Below are positions 3,514 through 41,525 of a stretch of 64,000 nucleotides of DNA, piece by piece. Source of the DNA: Naegleria gruberi (Eukaryota); assembly GCA_000004985.1 (NCBI GenBank), contig GG738918.1. One strand, 5' to 3'. Made by a program: the position numbers and the translations under genes. How positions within the stretch are numbered: the first letter of the stretch is position 1; each line of letters begins with the position of its first letter. The notes below the pieces were generated by a model. The model was not told where the DNA came from. It did no database searches and saw only the letters and a program-made list of their open reading frames with translations.

Positions 3514-6500
3514 TTATCTATCAAAGCTTTTAATTTCCATATTTACTTTTTTATCCAAATTGGTAATTGCTTCTGATATAATTGTTTTTACTAAAAATGG
3601 TTCAAAATATCTACGCATTGTGTTACTATTATTTTTGAATATTACTGAAAAATTATTAATGATATTCTTGGCTTGATCCATTAGATTATTTGTTTTCAAA
3701 TATTGTGCTAAATGTGTACCAATTAAACTTTCCTTTTTAGGTGGTTGTAATGCCGTAATAGATGAAAAAATCAAAGCTCTATCAATCATTTCATCATCGA
3801 GTGAAAACCCACATCGTGAAGAATATCCATTCTGATCTATATAAATATTACTCTTATTTTCTTTAACTTCTAATATACATCTAATAAAATTATCATATAA
3901 AATACTATTTAGTAAATTATTCTTAAATTGTTGAGATTTTAAAAGAGTAAATTCTTGAATGGATGATATTGAAATTTCATTCAATGATTTTGGAATAGTT
4001 ATAAAACCACTTTCTATTCCAATTGGATAATATTTAATTTTACATGAATCATCTTCCATATTTGGAAAATTGTTATCAGTTGTATCATTAAATAATTTTG
4101 AAATTTCCATAAAATTATTAAATAATAATGAATTATGAACAGTTCTTTGATTTTTGTAGGTGAAAAAACGCATTATTATTTCCTCTCCATTACAAAGTTT
4201 AATTTCCAAATTTATAAAATTCACATTTCTACTAATTTGGTGAATTCCTTGTTTAATTTCTTTCATTGTAAATGGCATGAATATTTGATTTTCAATATTC
4301 AAATAATTTTGTTTCATATCATAAAAATAATCCAAAAATAAACATTGATTTCTAATAATTTCAATTTCATTCATATTCATCATTTTCACAAATTTCATTA
4401 ACACTAATTTACAAATAAGGTAATGAGATTCTGATTTGAGTAACCAAAATAATTGATTTCCAAATACTTTAGATTTTATACATCTAGTGATAAGATATTC
4501 TGATAACAATCCATTTTCATTCTCATATTTAATACATTGAATGAGAAACGGTAAAATATAAGAAAATATTTCGTCCTTAGTTTCGTCTAAATATTTGAGT
4601 AGTGTTAATTTTGAAAATATGCCAATTTTAGAAGAGAATAACGTGAATAGTTCCATCACATTATTTGGTTTCTTCCATTTTTCCATGATTTGATTAGCTC
4701 TAAATAGTACCATTGGAGTTTCGAATGAAATTCCAAGCAGAAATGGAACAAAATGTGAAGAATCATTTACATTCCACTTGTTATTTTCTAAAATAGTCTC
4801 CAATTTCAAATCATTTTCATCTTCAATTAAATTTGGTTTTCTATCTAAATAATACTTTACAATACAATCATGAGTAGGAAATTCAATTTCAAGAGAAAGT
4901 TCTGAATTTTTTGTATTTTGTAAAAGTTTAACATTTCCTTGAATTAATTCCAAATTTGAATCAAACACTGAACATTCAAAATAGTTGGGTTTCATAATCT
5001 CAATTCTTTTAAGAATTCCAGTCTCTAAATCTTCTCTATAACAAACAAGTGAAAATTTGATAGAATAGTCACATGAAAATTGTGAAATTTGAGTTTCGAA
5101 TATAATTTCTTCATTCCATTCGAGTGGTATTTCTATATTTTGGAGAGGAATGATTTTAGTGTCGTGAATTTCATTTTTCTTTTCATTTGAAATTATTGAA
5201 CATTCAATTGAAAAGGAAGTGAAATTTCCATATTCGAATAACAAATCCCTAAATGAAAGTCCATGAACTTGTTTTATCACAACACTCATTCTCTTATTAA
5301 AATCAAATGATGATGATGATACAATATTATTATCTATCAATTTTTCATTATTCATTTCAAATTTCTTTTCAAAAATTGAATCAAGAAATGAAATATTACT
5401 TTCAGTCAATTCTCTTTCATTTTCTAAAAGACAATTACAATTCACATAACTAATTTGATTATTATTGACAAGTCCACATAAAATATTTCTATCATTTCTT
5501 GATAATGTCTTGTTATATTTCATGTTTAAATATTTCAATTTAGGAAATGAACTTATAATTGGAATTACATTTCCATTTAGGTAATTATTAGATAGATCTA
5601 ATTTTGTCAAGTTATTACAATTGAATTTTGTAAATAATTGAATAAAATCTTTAGAATAAACTGAACAATCTGGAATTTCCAAATTAGTTAAACTTTCACA
5701 ATCACAAATATTCTCAATTAATTTGAATGAATTGGAAGTTTGAGATCTTAATTTTAAACTTTTCAATTTGAATGGTTTAAATTCTGTGTTGGGGTTTCTA
5801 AATTTCCAAATAGTATCACCTGAAATGGAAAGTTTTACCAAATTAGTCAATTCACATTTTAACAATTCTGAAAAGTTTTCTGTATTTCCATTTATAATAT
5901 TCAATTCTTCCAAATTATTAGAAATTCTTGAAATTTCTTTGAAATTTACAGTACTGTCTATTAGAGAAAGTGATTTCACTGTCAATGGAATTACATTACT
6001 ATTTATAGTAACTCCAACTAATTTCAGTTTTCTCAAATTAGTATAATCCAAATGATATAATTCTATTGTTGAATTGTTTTTACAGCAAATTACTAATGAA
6101 TAAATTTGATGTTTGATAGATTGACCAATTACTTCAACTGCTGAATTAAATTTTACATCAATTGCCAAATTGACCAAATTAGGTAATGTCATTCTACTAT
6201 TCATCTATTCACTATATATTTTATCATCAATACTAAACAGTGATGAAATATCCAAAGATTTCAACTTGTAAAAATATGTAATAATAATATTTAATCCATA
6301 ATAATCCAATCCACTATTTTCTTTCAATGTTAAACTTTTTAAATTTTCATAAAATTTAAAATTTTTCATAATTTCCAAATCAGCATTTGAAAATGAACCT
6401 GTTAAACTTGAAATCCTATAAAACAATCTATTATTTTGAATAGCAGTTATAAAATTATTGATTGGATCACAATGATGATCTTTACGTGATGAAAATCTTG

Positions 6501-7098: not shown

Positions 7099-7216
7099 GG
7101 CTACGGCCATATCACGATGAATGCACCTCATCCCGTCCGATTTGAGAAGTTAAGTATCGTCGAGCCACATCAGTACTGAGGTTGGAGACAACTTGGGAAC
7201 CTGTGGTGCTGTAGTC
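7099..7216 (+). rRNA. 5S_rRNA: 5S ribosomal RNA gene (118 nt)
   Basis: 'GGCTACGGCCATATCACGATGAATGCACCTCATCCCGTCCGATTTGAGAAGTTAAGTATCGTCGAGCCACATCAGTACTGAGGTTGGAGACAACTTGGGAACCTGTGGTGCTGTAGTC' matches the eukaryotic 5S consensus blocks (CTACGGCCATA, GAAGnTAAG, AGTACT, TGGGAA, GTGCTGTAG). The 5' GGCTACGGC pairs with the 3' GCTGTAGTC (helix I, two G-U pairs). It is followed by a T5 Pol III terminator. Confidence 0.95.
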
Positions 7217-7221
7217 TTTTT
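7217..7221 (+). terminator. Pol III terminator T-run of the 5S gene
   Basis: TTTTT lies directly after the 3' helix-I strand of the 5S rRNA. Confidence 0.8.
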
Positions 7222-11036: not shown

Positions 11037-12248
11037 ATGAGAAAACGATCGAGTAGTGGGGGCGGAAGTTCTTCTCCTCAAAGTTTTACTTTCTGTGGTG
11101 GTGGTGATATTGAGAGCAGTTGTAAAACACCATCAATTTTAAAACCACTTGAAATTAAAACAAAGATAAAATCATCATTATCATATAATTATTCACCATC
11201 ACCTACTAGTGATGAATTAAGTAAAGATATGATAAATATTAAACAATTTTCACCCGATGATATTATAATAATAGATAAAATTGCATCAGGTGGATTTGCA
11301 GAAGTTTTTAAAATTCAAATTCATTCAACTATTTATGCAGGAAAGAGAATGTTAAAAAGTAGATCACAAATACAAAGAAATGTTGATAAATTTGCTAATG
11401 AATTAGTCAAGATGAATAGGATTTTTCAATTAGGATGTTCAAGAGTATTAAAACTTGTTGGTTATTGTTTTGATAAGGAAAATCAAAATTATTGGATTGT
11501 AACTGAATTTATCAATGTTGGAGATTTATATTCAATTATTCATTGTAAAGAACAAACTTTAAAGAGTCATCATTATGGATTAGAACGTATTAGAAATGAA
11601 TATTCAAAATTAATTGAATTAATTCATAATGATATGAATGTTAAAATTAAATTAGCTCTAGATATTGCTAAATGTATTGATGAACTACATTCATTAACAC
11701 GTTATGCTCATCTAGATGTGAAATCATTGAATATTCTTGTAGATGAAAATTTACAAATAAGAGTTGGAGATTGGTGTGATGCTAAACTAGTAGATGAATC
11801 AAGAGAACATTATCTCACTCCATTTCAACCACATGGTACAATATATTGGATGGCTCCTGAAATTGTTAAACAAAATGTATTTTGTCAAAAATCAGATATT
11901 TATGCTTTATCAATAGTTTTTACTGAATTATTAATTTTAGGTAAACCTTATCCTGGATTAAATGTTTTAGATGTTAAGGAAAAATTAGAGAGACCTATCA
12001 TTTCTAATCCAGCCAATAATAATAATACTGATAATACTAATTCTGATAATCAAATCAATAATACTGATAATATACCATATCGTATGAATATTATTGAAAT
12101 ATTGGAACAAAAGGGTTGTGATATAACTAATCAATGTAGAAATTTCATATCACTCATTGAAGATATGTGGAAAGAGGATGTTTCAGAAAGACTCTCTTCT
12201 AAACAAGTTGTAGAAAGATTATCTAATTTATTAGAAAGTGATGAATGA
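11037..12248 (+). CDS. Protein kinase (TKL-like Ser/Thr/Tyr kinase fold) with non-canonical motifs
   Basis: 403-codon ORF with 'gaaaaaaATG'. Kinase subdomains: 'ASGGFAEVF' (degenerate Gly loop), 'YAGK' (VAIK Lys), 'HLDVKSLNILV' (HRD replaced by HLD), 'VGDWCDA' (DFG replaced by DWC), 'YWMAPE'. Confidence 0.8.
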   Translation: MRKRSSSGGGSSSPQSFTFCGGGDIESSCKTPSILKPLEIKTKIKSSLSYNYSPSPTSDELSKDMINIKQFSPDDIIIIDKIASGGFAEVFKIQIHSTIYAGKRMLKSRSQIQRNVDKFANELVKMNRIFQLGCSRVLKLVGYCFDKENQNYWIVTEFINVGDLYSIIHCKEQTLKSHHYGLERIRNEYSKLIELIHNDMNVKIKLALDIAKCIDELHSLTRYAHLDVKSLNILVDENLQIRVGDWCDAKLVDESREHYLTPFQPHGTIYWMAPEIVKQNVFCQKSDIYALSIVFTELLILGKPYPGLNVLDVKEKLERPIISNPANNNNTDNTNSDNQINNTDNIPYRMNIIEILEQKGCDITNQCRNFISLIEDMWKEDVSERLSSKQVVERLSNLLESDE

Positions 12249-12256
12249 ATCAAATT

Positions 12257-13075
12257 TTACAAATCCTTAACAATTGAATAGTGATATTTAAATTTCATTT
12301 GATCTTTTCTAATTGAATTAACAGCACTGTTATATGAATCAATTTCAAATGGTTCTTCAACTCCAAATTTCACTAATTCTTCAAATATTTTATCAACTAT
12401 TGCCCATTCTATCAAACATTTAATACTATATTTCTCAATATGATCTTTTTGATTTCTATTAAAACAAACCAAGTTATAGGAAAATAGTGCATGTACAATA
12501 CGAATCTGTTGTTCCTCTGATATTATATTGGATTGTTTGTATTTGAAAAGGAGATCTGAACTTAATTTGAGTGTAGTTGGATCTCCTGTAATCATACTCT
12601 ATTGTTAGTCAGTTAAATATCCCAAATATGTAAATATACTACTTACAGAAATTAACAAGTCAAAATCTTTACATGTGAAAAAGTCATTTCTAATTTCACA
12701 TTTATCACAATAACCATTCAAGAGTGAAAGACATTTTGAGAAGAGTGTTGCCTTGTTTGTCTTCCAAATAATTTCCTTAATACGACCATGTAAAAAACCA
12801 ATTGTATCATTAATACTATTGTAAACTCCATCAATATAATACTCTATAAAGTGATCAAATAAAATATTAATTATTGTTTGAAGATAATGGAAATGAACGT
12901 ATGTTTCAGAATCAGTGGTATCACAAGCTTCATCAAGAGATTGTCCAATCGAGAGTAATGTATTTTCATTAAGGAATGGTTGGATATTGTTATGTTGAGA
13001 ATCATCAAAACAATTAAAAAAATGGGTAAGAAGGATTCGAAAGTGAAAGTAGGTTGATGTAGTAGAAAATGTCAA
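12257..13075 (-). CDS. Hypothetical protein with the 5' end unresolved (two exons recognised)
   Basis: Exons 12647..13075 and 12257..12598 join in frame through a 48-nt GTAAGT...AATAG intron (12599..12646). The upstream exon is 143 codons with no in-frame ATG (the track start is a TTG), so at least one more 5' exon must exist. No family recognised. Confidence 0.5.
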
Positions 13076-13447
13076 ACTAATCTTTAATTATTCGAATTGT
13101 GTACTAGGTAGTTGCCGTAGGAGATGGTGCTGTCGGCAAAACATGTTTATTGATGGTTTATGTAGGTGTTATTGTTTTGCTTTCTTCAATGATTTTATTC
13201 GATTCTTGTGGAAACTTGTCCGAATACGCCATTTCTATGATGTTGTATTTTAATGTTCGGAATATCACACTTCATCTGTATCATCATAATTTTCCTATTT
13301 TACCAATAATATTTCATCAAAATTTTGTTTCGAATAACATAGGTAAATAATGAATTTCCAGAAGAATACATTCCAACAGTTTTTGAAAATTACGATACAA
13401 ATGTCAAACACAAGGGAAATAACATAACATTATCTGTTTGGGATACT
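13022..13447 (+). pseudogene. Rho/Rac-family small GTPase, 5' half only (start codon through the beta3 strand); likely a truncated gene or pseudogene
   Basis: 'ttaaaaaaATGg|gtaag' is at 13022. Exon 2 (13112..13161) encodes '[17 protein letters not shown]'. Exon 3 (13343..13447) encodes 'VNNEFPEEYIPTVFENYDTNVKHKGNNITLSVWDT|gtacgt'. This matches Rac '[33 protein letters not shown]...LWDT'. The expected next exon (AGQEDY..., G4, G5, CAAX) is absent before the oppositely oriented genes that start at 13526. Confidence 0.55.
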
Positions 13448-13525
13448 GTACGTAATATTGTAACAACAACATTATACGAAACATCACATTGATCTATATA
13501 TTCTAAACATTATGAATCGCACATC

Positions 13526-13756
13526 TTAACTACCTATTGTTCGATGGAATGATTGTGAAGAGATTGAGAAAAGACCAGCAAGCTTTGTAAAATTTTCTTC
13601 CTTGTTCTCCTCGACACTATAATTTCCCAACTGGCCAAATAACTTTGCTGAATTGGTGACAAACGCATTCACAATATCTCCATTACTTTCGTGCATTAGA
13701 AAGAAGGAGTCAGCCATGTTGTTGAGCAAGAGTGGATCTGTAATATTTTGAGACAT
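13526..13756 (-). CDS. Small ORF (76 codons) with a good start context, possibly the first exon of a spliced gene; function unknown
   Basis: ATG at 13756 is preceded by 'aaaaaaaaa'. The ORF ends at a plausible donor ('ata g|gtagtt', 13533). I could not find a phase-compatible join to the ORF at 12647..13075. Confidence 0.35.
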   Translation of the reverse strand: MSQNITDPLLLNNMADSFFLMHESNGDIVNAFVTNSAKLFGQLGNYSVEENKEENFTKLAGLFSISSQSFHRTIGS

Positions 13757-13814
13757 TTTTTTTTAATTTGGAAACTTCCAAAATAAGATGATTTAAAATC
13801 TTTGATTTATTGAG

Positions 13815-26876: not shown

Positions 26877-28238
26877 ATGGGTGAAGTGATTCATGTACAA
26901 GTTGGAGGGTGTGGCAATCATATTGGTTATCAATTTTATGAAAGAATTGCCAAACATGAACATTCAATTCTTCCCAATGGTGAAAAAAGCCTAACTCGTA
27001 ATCATGAAAATATTTACACTGATATTGATGAAGAAAATTACTATACAAATGTATTCTTTGAAGAGAGTAAGAGTGGTCGATGGTCTCCGAGGGCTGTTTT
27101 AGCAGATTTGGAGCCTTATTCCATAGATCAAATACAACAATTAGAATATGGAAGAATATTTAAGAGCGAATATAATGCAATTTATCAGTATGGTGCTGGA
27201 GGAAATTGGGCAAAAGGGCACTATACGATTGGAGCTGAATGTGTGGATAATGTTATGGAGGTAGTGAGGAAACAAGCTGAAAATTGTGGGAACTTACAAG
27301 GATTTCAATTGATGCATTCGTTGGGAGGAGGATCAGGATCAGGTTGGGGTACTCTGGTGATATCTAAACTGAGAGAGGAGTATCCTGATAAGATTGTTTC
27401 TAGTTGTTCTGTTTTTCCTTCTTTGAAAGCATCATCTACAAATCCTGTTGAGGCCTATAATTGTGTTTTGGCTTTTCACCAATTGATTGAGAATACAGAT
27501 TTCGTATCATGTTTTGATAATGAAGCTCTGATTGAAATACAATCAAAATTGAATCTAACCAATGAAGGTTTTAGTGCAATTAATAGAATAATTGCAAAGG
27601 TTATGTCTGATGTAACCTGTTCATTTCGGTTTCCTTCCCATTTAGGGTATAATTTAAGAAAGCTTGCCACCAATTTGATACCTTTTCCTAGACTCCACTT
27701 TGCAACAATTTCACACACTCCAATTAGTGCTGATAGTAATAATTCCTCAAAGAATATATCAGAACTATTCCAAAATTTGACATCTCCAAATAATGTCATG
27801 TGTGGCTGTGATCCTAGAAGTGGTCGGTATATGGCTGCCATTGCTTTATTCAGAGGCTCTATGACATTGAAAGAAGTGAATGATGTTGCTTCATCTGTTT
27901 CCAATAAGAATTCTTCTAATTGGGTTGATTGGATGCCACCCAATTTAAAATCAAATGTTTGTAAGAAGAAATCAGGTGATTTTGAGTCGGCTACTCTCAT
28001 TGCAAACTCCACATCTATTCGATTCTTGCTCACCAATATTGAAAATCGATTCGATAACTTATTCAAAAGGAAAGCGTATCTTCACAACTTGTGTTATGAA
28101 GGAATGGATGAAATGGAATTTTCAGAGGCACAACATAATCTTAATGATATCATAACTGAATACAAGTGTTACGGAGACGAAATTCTTGACGATTTCGATG
28201 ATAGTAACCTTGATCTTTCTTCTAAGGACTTGATATAA
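26877..28238 (+). CDS. Tubulin-superfamily protein, a highly divergent beta-tubulin-like paralogue
   Basis: 'aaaaaaaaATG'. 'MGEVIHVQVGGCGNHIG', 'GAGGNWAKGHYTIGAE', 'LQGFQLMHSLGGGSGSGWGTLVISKLREEYPDKI', 'FRFPSHLGYNLRKLATNLIPFPRLHF', 'RKAYLHNLCYEGMDEMEFSEAQHNLNDIITEY'. It is collinear with beta-tubulin over its whole length but roughly 40-45% identical by eye. Confidence 0.85.
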   Translation: MGEVIHVQVGGCGNHIGYQFYERIAKHEHSILPNGEKSLTRNHENIYTDIDEENYYTNVFFEESKSGRWSPRAVLADLEPYSIDQIQQLEYGRIFKSEYNAIYQYGAGGNWAKGHYTIGAECVDNVMEVVRKQAENCGNLQGFQLMHSLGGGSGSGWGTLVISKLREEYPDKIVSSCSVFPSLKASSTNPVEAYNCVLAFHQLIENTDFVSCFDNEALIEIQSKLNLTNEGFSAINRIIAKVMSDVTCSFRFPSHLGYNLRKLATNLIPFPRLHFATISHTPISADSNNSSKNISELFQNLTSPNNVMCGCDPRSGRYMAAIALFRGSMTLKEVNDVASSVSNKNSSNWVDWMPPNLKSNVCKKKSGDFESATLIANSTSIRFLLTNIENRFDNLFKRKAYLHNLCYEGMDEMEFSEAQHNLNDIITEYKCYGDEILDDFDDSNLDLSSKDLI

Positions 28239-39074: not shown

Positions 39075-41525
39075 TCAATTTCCAGACAGGTTGTTAATGT
39101 GATTCTTATAGATAGAGATTAGTTCTAAAACTTGTCTAACTTCTTGGAAGTTGATAGTGTTGTGAGTAGTTGATGGATTTTCACGATTACTAAATGAGAG
39201 ATTTCTCCAATAATTTGCAACATTAACATCTGCACAATTTTGTTCCTTTCTAAACTTTTTCAAATTATAGAAGAGTCCAACAAGATTCCCTCTAAGGTAT
39301 TTCTTTGCAGTCTCATTGAATTGTTTGATATCTTGTTCAATAGATAAAAGTTGCTCATTGTAAAAAATGTTGATGGATTGGCAGAGTTCTATGTATATAT
39401 TTTTGAATTGTGAAAATGGTTTGGTGAAGAGGGGATTGAGATTGTTCACTAAATGATCTTCATTCACTTGATTAGAGAATTTACTTTGCATGATGGATGA
39501 AACTATTCTTGTATCATTATATTTTGATGAGGTCAACTCGTATGGAGGATTTTCTAGAACATACTTGTCCAGTTTTGAGACTAAATAATTGACATTACAC
39601 AATCTGAGAGAGGGAATATTTGAGTGAAGAGATGACTTCAATATAAAACATTTGTATGGTTGTTTGAAATTGACAAACTCTAGTCCTTCATATTCGAGGG
39701 GTGAGAACTTTTCAAAATCATTCACAAAATCCTGAAGGTCCAAAAATCCTATATCTGAATATGATTTAACAAAGTCGTTCCAATTATATTTTGTAGAAAA
39801 ATCAATCCAATTTTCATATTCCATCATAGATTCTAGATTTCTACTCCCACAATAAATAATTCTATTACTATTTTTCTGATAAATGAAGAAAAAGTTCAAC
39901 ATTTGATCTTCATGGGATGGATACTTCATTCCAATTCTTTCAAACAGATTTTCAAATTCCTGTTCAGTTTGACTCATATCAAAATTCTTGAGAATCCATT
40001 TGGAAATCCAATTGTCCTTTTCATCATCAAAGACAAACCTCCACTCACCAGAATAAAAGAAAAGCGAACACCTTATCCCAACTGGCCTTTCTAGAATTTG
40101 AATTGAGCTCATGTCAATATCTGAAAAATAGTCACTACCAACTTTTTCTAGTATGAAATTATAATCCATAGCATAGAATCTAGGAACACATACAGGAGTG
40201 TAAACTATCTTTCCATTATCATCAATATTATAAGATAGTACTGTTCCATTACATTCCAAGTAGGACCTACATTCTAAGAAAAGTTTACACAATTCTAAGG
40301 AAATATATTCCATATCACAATCTATCTTGAATAGTTGAGAACTATTAGGATTAAGATGCTCCTCTTTGGATCTAATAATTGGTGTCACATTCACTGAAAG
40401 TAATCTCATCAAGCTGTATGGACCGTATTTGTAGTGGTGTGAAAAGTCTAGTTCATAATTATGCTCTACAACCATTATTAATTCACTAAACAGTGGATTA
40501 TCCTTTTCAAAGCCTGAAGAATATGTATTCAGGAAGTTTTGAATACCCAATGAACTATTGCTTTCTGAGTTTTTACATTTGAAAAGGGCATCTTTGATAA
40601 TATTCTTCAGATCATCTTTTAATTGTTCCTTCCATGTCTTATAGAGTGCATCACTAATTTGTTTATACTCATTCCAAGAACTAAATGAATCAGTATGAAA
40701 TACAATGCTGTCATAGAGTTTGTTAGTTTCGGTATAATCATATATAATACCTGAATTAACAAATTGATAAGCATATTTCGAGTATCTAATACCATGAGCT
40801 AGGTTTTTCTTCACCTTCTTTAGAGTACTTTTCCTTTCACTTTCATCCTTGCAAAGTTTGTTCTCCAAAACATTCCAAAATCTAAATGCCTTATTAAAGC
40901 AATGATGAAGCTCGTGAAGGAATGAATTTTTAGTTCTAGAAATTCTCAAAAACCACAAACTCCAATGATGCCTCCATAATTTCATCTTTTCATCCTCAAA
41001 CAGAACAAATGATGAATTTGGTTGCAGAACAGATAGCATGAATATTGGCAATTGTAAATAAACATGGTCCACAAAGAATGAAGTTTCCATAATGTGCACT
41101 TCCATATCGTATTCCTTCTCTTCTAATTTACCCTCCTCATCATCACAATTACACTTAATAGAGCTTTTCAATAAATATTGTAAATTATTAGAATATCTCG
41201 TTTCATAATCAATACAATGAGAGTAAAAATCATCAACAATCATTATTAAATCAAAATCAGAATCGTTTACATTGGTTTTTGAAACTCTTGATCCGAACAC
41301 GTAAATTCCTCTAATCGAATCATCACGATATAAAACCTTGTCCTTCAACAAGCCTTCTTCAGAAATTGTAATAAAATTGCGAATATGATAAATTAATTCA
41401 TCACTTGAGAAGGGAAATTTAAATTGATTTTCATGGAAATGATGTGATTGCCAATATTGACTCGGTCCAGTACTCTCTTTATCATAACGGAAATTATTAA
41501 TGGTGCATTTTGGAAATTGTTGCAT
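39075..41525 (-). CDS. Pol-beta-superfamily nucleotidyltransferase-domain protein with a large C-terminal region containing ligase-like motifs
   Basis: 816-codon ORF with an A-run before the ATG at 41525. NTase signature 'VFGSRVSKTNVNDSDFDLIMIV' (GS-x9-SDxD). The C-terminal half has 'ILERPVGIRCSLFFYSGEWRF', 'RIIYCGSRN' and 'YEGLEFVNFKQPYKCFILKS', which resemble covalent nucleotidyltransferase motifs I, IIIa and IV/V. Confidence 0.6.
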   Translation of the reverse strand: MQQFPKCTINNFRYDKESTGPSQYWQSHHFHENQFKFPFSSDELIYHIRNFITISEEGLLKDKVLYRDDSIRGIYVFGSRVSKTNVNDSDFDLIMIVDDFYSHCIDYETRYSNNLQYLLKSSIKCNCDDEEGKLEEKEYDMEVHIMETSFFVDHVYLQLPIFMLSVLQPNSSFVLFEDEKMKLWRHHWSLWFLRISRTKNSFLHELHHCFNKAFRFWNVLENKLCKDESERKSTLKKVKKNLAHGIRYSKYAYQFVNSGIIYDYTETNKLYDSIVFHTDSFSSWNEYKQISDALYKTWKEQLKDDLKNIIKDALFKCKNSESNSSLGIQNFLNTYSSGFEKDNPLFSELIMVVEHNYELDFSHHYKYGPYSLMRLLSVNVTPIIRSKEEHLNPNSSQLFKIDCDMEYISLELCKLFLECRSYLECNGTVLSYNIDDNGKIVYTPVCVPRFYAMDYNFILEKVGSDYFSDIDMSSIQILERPVGIRCSLFFYSGEWRFVFDDEKDNWISKWILKNFDMSQTEQEFENLFERIGMKYPSHEDQMLNFFFIYQKNSNRIIYCGSRNLESMMEYENWIDFSTKYNWNDFVKSYSDIGFLDLQDFVNDFEKFSPLEYEGLEFVNFKQPYKCFILKSSLHSNIPSLRLCNVNYLVSKLDKYVLENPPYELTSSKYNDTRIVSSIMQSKFSNQVNEDHLVNNLNPLFTKPFSQFKNIYIELCQSINIFYNEQLLSIEQDIKQFNETAKKYLRGNLVGLFYNLKKFRKEQNCADVNVANYWRNLSFSNRENPSTTHNTINFQEVRQVLELISIYKNHINNLSGN

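Follow-up and report, generated by a model that had tools for sequence, protein, structure and literature searches.

A probable partial duplicate of a Rho family GTPase gene, cut off inside its third intron, in Naegleria gruberi

In the 64-kb window analysed here, the whole stretch of 64,000 nucleotides of the Naegleria gruberi NEG-M genome to whose first letter all positions refer, a fragment of a Rho GTPase gene was found on the plus strand at 13022-13447. It lies between a TKL-type kinase gene (XP_002670149.1; 11037-12248, plus strand) and a casein kinase 1 (CK1) gene (XP_002670189.1; 13815-15872, minus strand), and the minus-strand genes beyond it are those of CK1 and a kinesin. Four window ORFs, namely those of the two kinases, beta-tubulin (XP_002670151.1) and XP_002670194.1, match N. 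gruberi NEG-M proteins exactly, all of them on a scaffold of 222,118 bp, and the window is free of assembly gaps (0 N). Neither a length-restricted search of short proteins nor an ORF search returned an N. gruberi gene model at the locus of the fragment, which appears to be unannotated in NEG-M, and no literature on this specific locus was found. The consecutive UniProt accessions D2W0B6 and D2W0B7 were considered as a proof that the interval from the kinase gene to the CK1 gene lacks annotation, and were set aside because accession order tracks position unreliably elsewhere in the window.

As read from the sequence, the fragment comprises three exons, the first of which opens with a start codon, and two GT-AG introns. 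The 62 residues that it encodes correspond to the P-loop, switch I and beta2-beta3 in a Rho GTPase. The ATG is at 13022-13024 in A-rich surroundings (aattaaaaaaATGG). Exon 1 (13022-13048, plus strand as are all parts of the fragment; 27 nt) encodes MGKKDSKVK in phase 0 (codons ATG GGT AAG AAG GAT TCG AAA GTG AAA) and ends at a GTAGGT donor at 13049, and intron 1 (13049-13107; 59 nt, GTAGGT...CTAG) agrees in position and phase with intron 1 of the N. fowleri orthologue. Exon 2 (13108-13161), which encodes beta1, the G1/P-loop and the start of alpha1, is likewise followed by a GTAGGT donor after 13161. Intron 2 (13162-13342; 181 nt, GTAGGT...ATAG) occupies a position common to the orthologues on a metagenomic contig (L002), in N. 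fowleri, whose GTAGGT donor is identical, and in W. magna. Exon 3 (13343-13447; VNNEFPEEYIPTVFENYDTNVKHKGNNITLSVWDT) encodes the end of alpha1, switch I with the G2 threonine, beta2, beta3 and the first two residues of DTAGQ, ending in ...LSVWDT. The donor GTACGT at 13448 opens a retained 5' part of intron 3 (13448-13525, beginning with GTACGTAATATT), which runs into a breakpoint with no exon 4. If this part were left unspliced, translation would add VRNIVTTTLYETSH before a TGA stop at 13490-13492. The three exons show no defects and the splice sites are intact.

The original prediction, made from the letters of the window, had placed a truncated Rho gene at these coordinates with a start codon, the G1-switch I-beta3 region and a last exon ending at a good donor, all of which is borne out by the Pfam, RAC1 and N. 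gruberi protein matches given below and by the GTACGT at 13448. It had also proposed a 4-nt exon 1 (ATGG|gtaag, giving MVAVGDG...). This exon is replaced here by the one of 27 nt, since the resulting three-exon model reproduces the annotated N. gruberi protein exactly and agrees with the orthologues. Of the two GT-AG introns that it had drawn, the second, of 181 nt, is retained, but the first, of 86 nt, gives way to one of 59 nt (13049-13107).

The spliced peptide aligns to positions 2-55 of the 162 positions of the Pfam Ras family PF00071 (E=1.3e-16) and to residues 3-58 of RAC1 crystal-structure sequences (E about 1e-18), so that, judged by these alignments, the identity of the fragment as a Rho sequence is far beyond chance. 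The G1/P-loop motif GxxxxGK[ST] is present in exon 2 as GDGAVGKT, and the G2/switch I region with its conserved threonine is present in exon 3 as EEYIPTVFENY, which is invariant across the alignment. An identical 11-mer, AATTAAAAAAA, precedes both the ATG of the fragment (13012-13022, plus strand) and the ATG of a 76-aa ORF on the other strand (13758-13768, minus strand). Runs of A are also found before the Rho starts of N. fowleri and W. magna, and the 11-mer is probably a generic Naegleria start context.

The remainder of the GTPase is missing. A tblastn search of both strands of the 64-kb window with the full-length N. gruberi protein (word size 2, E up to 100) found no coding sequence for residues 63-180, and tblastn searches of both strands with human RAC1 and RHOA returned only the two larger exons and nothing else Rho-like, RAC1 residues 59-192 having no counterpart in the window. 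Two tiny co-linear matches in the N-terminus of the kinase, SFTFC (11082-11096) and SCKTPSIL (11118-11141), had an E of 33 and were dismissed as chance; both lie upstream of the fragment's ATG. The G3/switch II motif DxxGQ is incomplete, with only W-D-T encoded and AGQEDY absent from the whole window by tblastn. Exon 3 thus stops inside G3, with the D and T of DTAGQ present and AGQ missing, and not exactly before it as first described. For G4 ([NT]KxD) and G5 (SA[KR/L]), the GTKGD and SSAR of the complete N. gruberi protein are without a match in the window by tblastn and alignment, and no counterpart of its CEIM, the CAAX prenylation box, was found there by tblastn. The predicted absence of G4, G5 and the CAAX box therefore held under all three queries. 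Altogether, the fragment has lost the Gly and Gln of G3, the G4 and G5 motifs, the last two thirds of the G domain (~118 residues) and the CAAX box.

Judged by its coding content, the fragment should be unable to encode a working GTPase, and at most would yield a P-loop/switch I peptide of 62 aa when spliced or 76 aa on read-through. From the established structure of the Ras superfamily, one third of a G domain without switch II, G4 and G5 is not expected to fold, or to bind or hydrolyse GTP. We call the fragment dead on arrival because a peptide without these elements cannot, by that structure, bind and hydrolyse GTP. The same point bears on the idea that the fragment has been retained and is expressed, either as this short peptide of 62-76 aa or as an antisense or regulatory transcript directed against an orphan gene on the minus strand or against the parental Rho mRNA. 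The ATG context, the ORF and the splice sites are all intact, as such a role would require, and the fragment lies antisense within what may be a minus-strand transcription unit. However, a peptide equivalent to RAC1 residues 3-58 only would be expected neither to fold nor to bind nucleotide, a promoter is doubtful since only ~12 nt of upstream sequence seem to have been copied, and the intactness is explained equally well by youth. Retention with expression is accordingly highly unlikely.

A complete version of the gene is present elsewhere in the same genome. A query that joined the N-terminus from the window to the C-terminal half of the metagenomic relative gave as its three top matches the N. 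gruberi protein XP_002676036.1 (180 aa), N. fowleri FDP41_013362 (179 aa) and W. magna ABK040_010699 (180 aa). XP_002676036.1 (EFC43292.1; UniProt D2VIL7), a rho family small GTPase of strain NEG-M, is the parent of the fragment: at the protein level all 62 fragment residues, spread over three separate exons, are identical to its residues 1-62 (MGKKDSKVK...LSVWDT), and the exon boundaries that it implies agree with those of the fragment. The parent is complete, continuing with AGQEDYDELRHL... (AGQEDYDE...), GTKGD and SSAR to a C-terminal CEIM, none of which the window copy has. It lies on a single contig of 401,612 bp, separate from the 222,118-bp scaffold that carries the window genes. The finding of an intact parent on another scaffold, with no 3' exons in the window, upholds the reading favoured at the outset, that of a truncated duplicate or pseudogene.

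Two features of the parental protein are recorded in passing. At residues 74-79 it (P0121) reads LSFTFCNCF where N. fowleri, W. magna, the L002 protein and Rho proteins generally have LSYPNANCF; this is either an unusual substitution cluster in switch II/alpha2 or a wrong gene model there. The Naegleria/Willaertia orthogroup to which it belongs (P0121-P0123) is ~8 residues shorter than RAC1 and than a paralogue (P0124) in the Rho-insert region, between the TKxD and SA motifs, and may be without the full Rho insert helix, as far as the alignment goes.

For comparison with relatives we used the metagenomic contig L002, which comes from a close relative, and the loci of N. fowleri (L005) and W. 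magna (L006). The orthologues are complete genes in all of them: FDP41_013362 (P0122) of N. fowleri at L005 10001-11207, which starts with MGKKDTKVK|gtatgt, ABK040_010699 (P0123) of W. magna at L006 10001-10944, which starts with MGKKDLKVK, and the metagenomic genes on contigs L002 and L003. In an observation on other genes of the window, the 90%-identity cluster representatives of the beta-tubulin (26877-28238, plus strand) and of a predicted protein (39075-41525, minus strand) came from ENA metagenome contigs (P0244 and P0246). This places a close relative of N. gruberi in public metagenomes, probably the same source as that of L002/L003.

The gene structure is conserved as well. The introns after ...MVY and ...WDT occupy the same positions in the window, L002, N. 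fowleri and W. magna, and N. fowleri shares with the fragment the position and phase of the intron after K9. Furthermore, the first 12 nt of intron 3 are the same in the window and in N. fowleri. In the orthologues, intron 3 has a length of ~86 nt (L002) or ~100-110 nt (N. fowleri and W. magna) and leads directly into AGQEDYDE... and on through to the CAAX box. These lengths weigh upon the proposal that the gene is complete but split, with exon 4 onward at a distance of over 50 kb, or on a different scaffold, and joined through a giant intron or by trans-splicing. The intact GTACGT donor at 13448, with 12 nt identical to the N. fowleri donor region, and the absence of defects in exons 1-3 would suit it. 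Nevertheless, no 3' exon was found from 13 kb upstream to 50 kb downstream, exon 4 follows within ~85-110 nt in all orthologues, elsewhere there is a complete copy that has exons 1-3 of its own, and the minus-strand genes for CK1 and the kinesin follow immediately; we know of no description of such mRNA trans-splicing in Naegleria. Completion of the gene by an exon that had escaped notice, the alternative allowed for in the original prediction, is thus disfavoured, and a split gene is extremely improbable.

The divergence among species gives a measure of how young the copy might be. The 62 residues of the fragment share 90% amino-acid identity with the N. fowleri and W. magna orthologues. Between exon 3 and its L002 counterpart, 34 of 35 residues are identical and nucleotide identity is 87.6%, with 12 synonymous differences and one non-synonymous difference (dS 1.16, dN 0.012), and pS against N. 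fowleri is 0.78. Against the nearest other species, synonymous change has thus reached saturation, with only minimal change at non-synonymous sites. Against the NEG-M parent, the fragment has zero non-synonymous differences. Identity to the parent over 62 codons at the protein level, together with the intact splice sites, implies that the copy is young relative to speciation, or else that it is an artefact; read in the former way, the comparison suggests a recent copy.

A conserved truncated Rho gene was also considered. The top match of the fragment was a 67-aa N. lovaniensis model (P0001), which could be mistaken for such a gene. At that locus (L001 10001-11418; PYSW02000008.1), one Rho paralogue is represented by two models split at an intron, one of 67 aa ending in AGQEE and one of 155 aa after the next intron. 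The short model is therefore the first half of a split gene model of a paralogue with different intron positions, and the idea was rejected.

Apart from the Rho exons, a 5S rRNA gene and a generic ABC ATPase match, the window showed no synteny with the loci that carry the Rho genes in N. lovaniensis (L001), N. fowleri (L005) and W. magna (L006), and the neighbours of the orthologous Rho loci are unrelated to those in the window. This lack of synteny carries no information, since synteny is not obvious even between the N. fowleri and W. magna loci. The 5S rRNA gene of the window (7099-7217, plus strand; Rfam RF00001, 102 bits, full length) is a dispersed single copy among protein-coding genes, and N. 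lovaniensis also has one (L001 about 5650-6170), at a distance of a few kb from its Rho paralogue. The one non-Rho similarity between the window and that locus arises because both carry a 5S gene.

The strand opposite the fragment carries two further ORFs. A 76-aa orphan ORF (13526-13756, minus strand), whose ATG has the AATTAAAAAAA start context mentioned above, begins 58 nt downstream of the CK1 stop and has a positive codon-usage score; it is not significant on length alone and is absent from the protein collection, and is possibly the severed 5' end of an orphan gene. On the other side of the fragment lies a headless orphan ORF (12257-13087, minus strand). Its open frame at 12605-13087 runs for 161 codons with no in-frame ATG, a length for which 0.05-0.14 occurrences per window are expected by chance. 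Its exon A ends at 12647 and its exon B covers 12257-12598, separated by a plausible intron of 48 nt (12599-12646; GTAAGT...ATAG, in the context TCT|GTAAGT ... ATAG|AGT), and its end lies 8 nt past the convergent kinase gene. When codon usage was scored by log-likelihood, with 21 long window ORFs as the training set, the minus strand was positive from 13756 to 13532, positive again from ~13010 to 12257, and negative exactly across 13525-13010, that is, across the Rho fragment. The two ORFs share one frame, being 681 nt apart, a multiple of 3 for which the chance expectation is 1 in 3. Homologues of the minus-strand ORFs were found neither in Pfam nor among 5.8e9 proteins nor in the PDB; the query used for the 5.8e9 proteins spliced the orphan ORF as LLIS|GDP instead of the LLIS|SMITGDP of the model, which is immaterial for homology. 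A real minus-strand host gene is thus only probable: it would be an orphan, it is unannotated, and it may not be a gene.

An arrangement in which the fragment sits inside an intron of a minus-strand gene made up of the 76-aa ORF and the headless ORF was tried and rejected. The donors near 13530 are of phase 1 and the acceptors near 13080 are of phase 0 or 2, so that they are incompatible, and the sole phase-1 acceptor (~12935) would skip sequence with a good coding signal.

Taken together, these features suggest a small insertion. The copied piece would extend over roughly 13010-13525 (~0.5 kb) and take in ~12 nt of sequence before the ATG, exons 1-3 with introns 1-2, and the first ~80 nt of intron 3. 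It would have broken off inside intron 3, before the minus-strand ORF that ends at 13526, and would have come to rest at a second locus, with the TKL-type kinase gene on one side and the CK1 gene on the other. There it would have been placed antisense between two minus-strand ORFs of the same frame, and its insertion would probably have broken a lineage-specific gene. As to how the piece was copied, retroposition is ruled out by the retained introns with their intact splice sites. On either side of the fragment, a search for terminal inverted repeats, target-site duplications or local repeats found none; only short A/T-rich chance repeats were seen there, together with an 11-nt inverted pair that is the AATTAAAAAAA start context, and transposon capture is unsupported for that reason. 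In addition, no recurrence of the region's sequence was found elsewhere in the window. A small DNA-level duplication by insertion, for example of templated filler DNA during double-strand-break repair, would be a suitable mechanism.

The codon-usage profile also bears on the direction of the duplication. The Rho locus in the window could be the ancestral one, which would have lost its 3' half by deletion or rearrangement once a full copy existed elsewhere; the same data fit, and the direction of duplication is not readable from a protein-level comparison. However, the minus-strand coding signal resumes ~12 nt from the ATG and ~80 nt from exon 3, and a small insert fits this better than a residual locus with intergenic flanks of its own. 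The absence of flanking synteny with the Rho loci of N. fowleri, W. magna or N. lovaniensis also speaks, weakly, against a remnant at the ancestral locus, which we regard as very improbable.

An assembly artefact, which the original prediction had listed as an assembly join, is the other way to account for such close identity to the parent. Chimeric clones or reads from the true Rho locus might have been built into the 222-kb scaffold of the 2010 Sanger assembly: a gene on a different scaffold encodes the identical protein sequence, the fragment breaks off abruptly within an intron, the overlapping minus-strand ORF and the fragment both look cut at the same place, and the locus is unannotated. 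Against this, the piece is internal and ~0.5 kb long with unique sequence on both sides and 0 N, so that two independent chimeric junctions would probably be needed, and the flanking genes are without duplicates elsewhere. Nor is the locus a haplotig, as the CK1 and kinase clusters each have one member, on one contig. We infer that the organism does carry the copy, an assembly chimera being unlikely, though not negligibly so. Our main reading, to which we assign a probability of about 0.7, is that 13022-13447 is a young, non-functional, intron-containing partial duplicate of XP_002676036.1, made at the DNA level and landed at a second locus.

A more specific version of this reading concerns the host gene. 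In it, a templated insertion of ~0.5 kb, a multiple of 3 nt in length, split a lineage-specific gene into a head of 76 aa (13756-13526) and a headless body (~13010-12257). We consider it quite unlikely. If it were true, a heterolobosean would offer double-strand-break filler DNA caught in the act of killing an orphan gene and of starting a new transcription unit that is antisense and can be spliced.

In practical terms, an unannotated and intact-looking 5' fragment of a Rho gene in the NEG-M reference could mislead gene counts for the Rho family, which is expanded in Naegleria, read mapping, the design of primers and guides, and automated gene predictors. For annotation, the model of the first exon is corrected here, and a probably disrupted orphan gene is flagged between the kinase gene and the CK1 gene. 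If the copy is real, it is a small datum on the origin of partial gene duplicates in a compact protist genome. It raises no new biological question.

Compared with known kinds of sequence, the fragment resembles human RAC1 over beta1, the P-loop, alpha1, switch I, beta2 and beta3. Of the elements of a functional Rho GTPase (PF00071), it has G1 and G2 and is without G3, G4, G5 and the CAAX box. Transposons of the Pack-MULE and Helitron types are known to capture gene fragments, and here too a piece of a host gene with its introns has apparently been moved to a new locus; different from such captures, the Rho fragment is without terminal inverted repeats, target-site duplications or other flanking repeats. 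Non-processed partial pseudogenes, a well-known kind, are dead-on-arrival gene fragments that arise from segmental or templated duplication. An intact parent elsewhere in the genome, the retention of introns (59 and 181 nt, and the start of intron 3) and the loss of residues 63-180 are all found here. In common with these pseudogenes, the fragment keeps its introns, is cut inside an intron and has as yet no disabling mutations, its likeness to the parent being known at the protein level. Unlike the usual ones, it is very small (~0.5 kb), apparently lies antisense in another ORF and outside any larger segmental duplication. From its sequence, the fragment would be best filed as a non-processed partial pseudogene of XP_002676036.1, and it most probably represents an ordinary dead fragment of a gene rather than a gene of a new kind.
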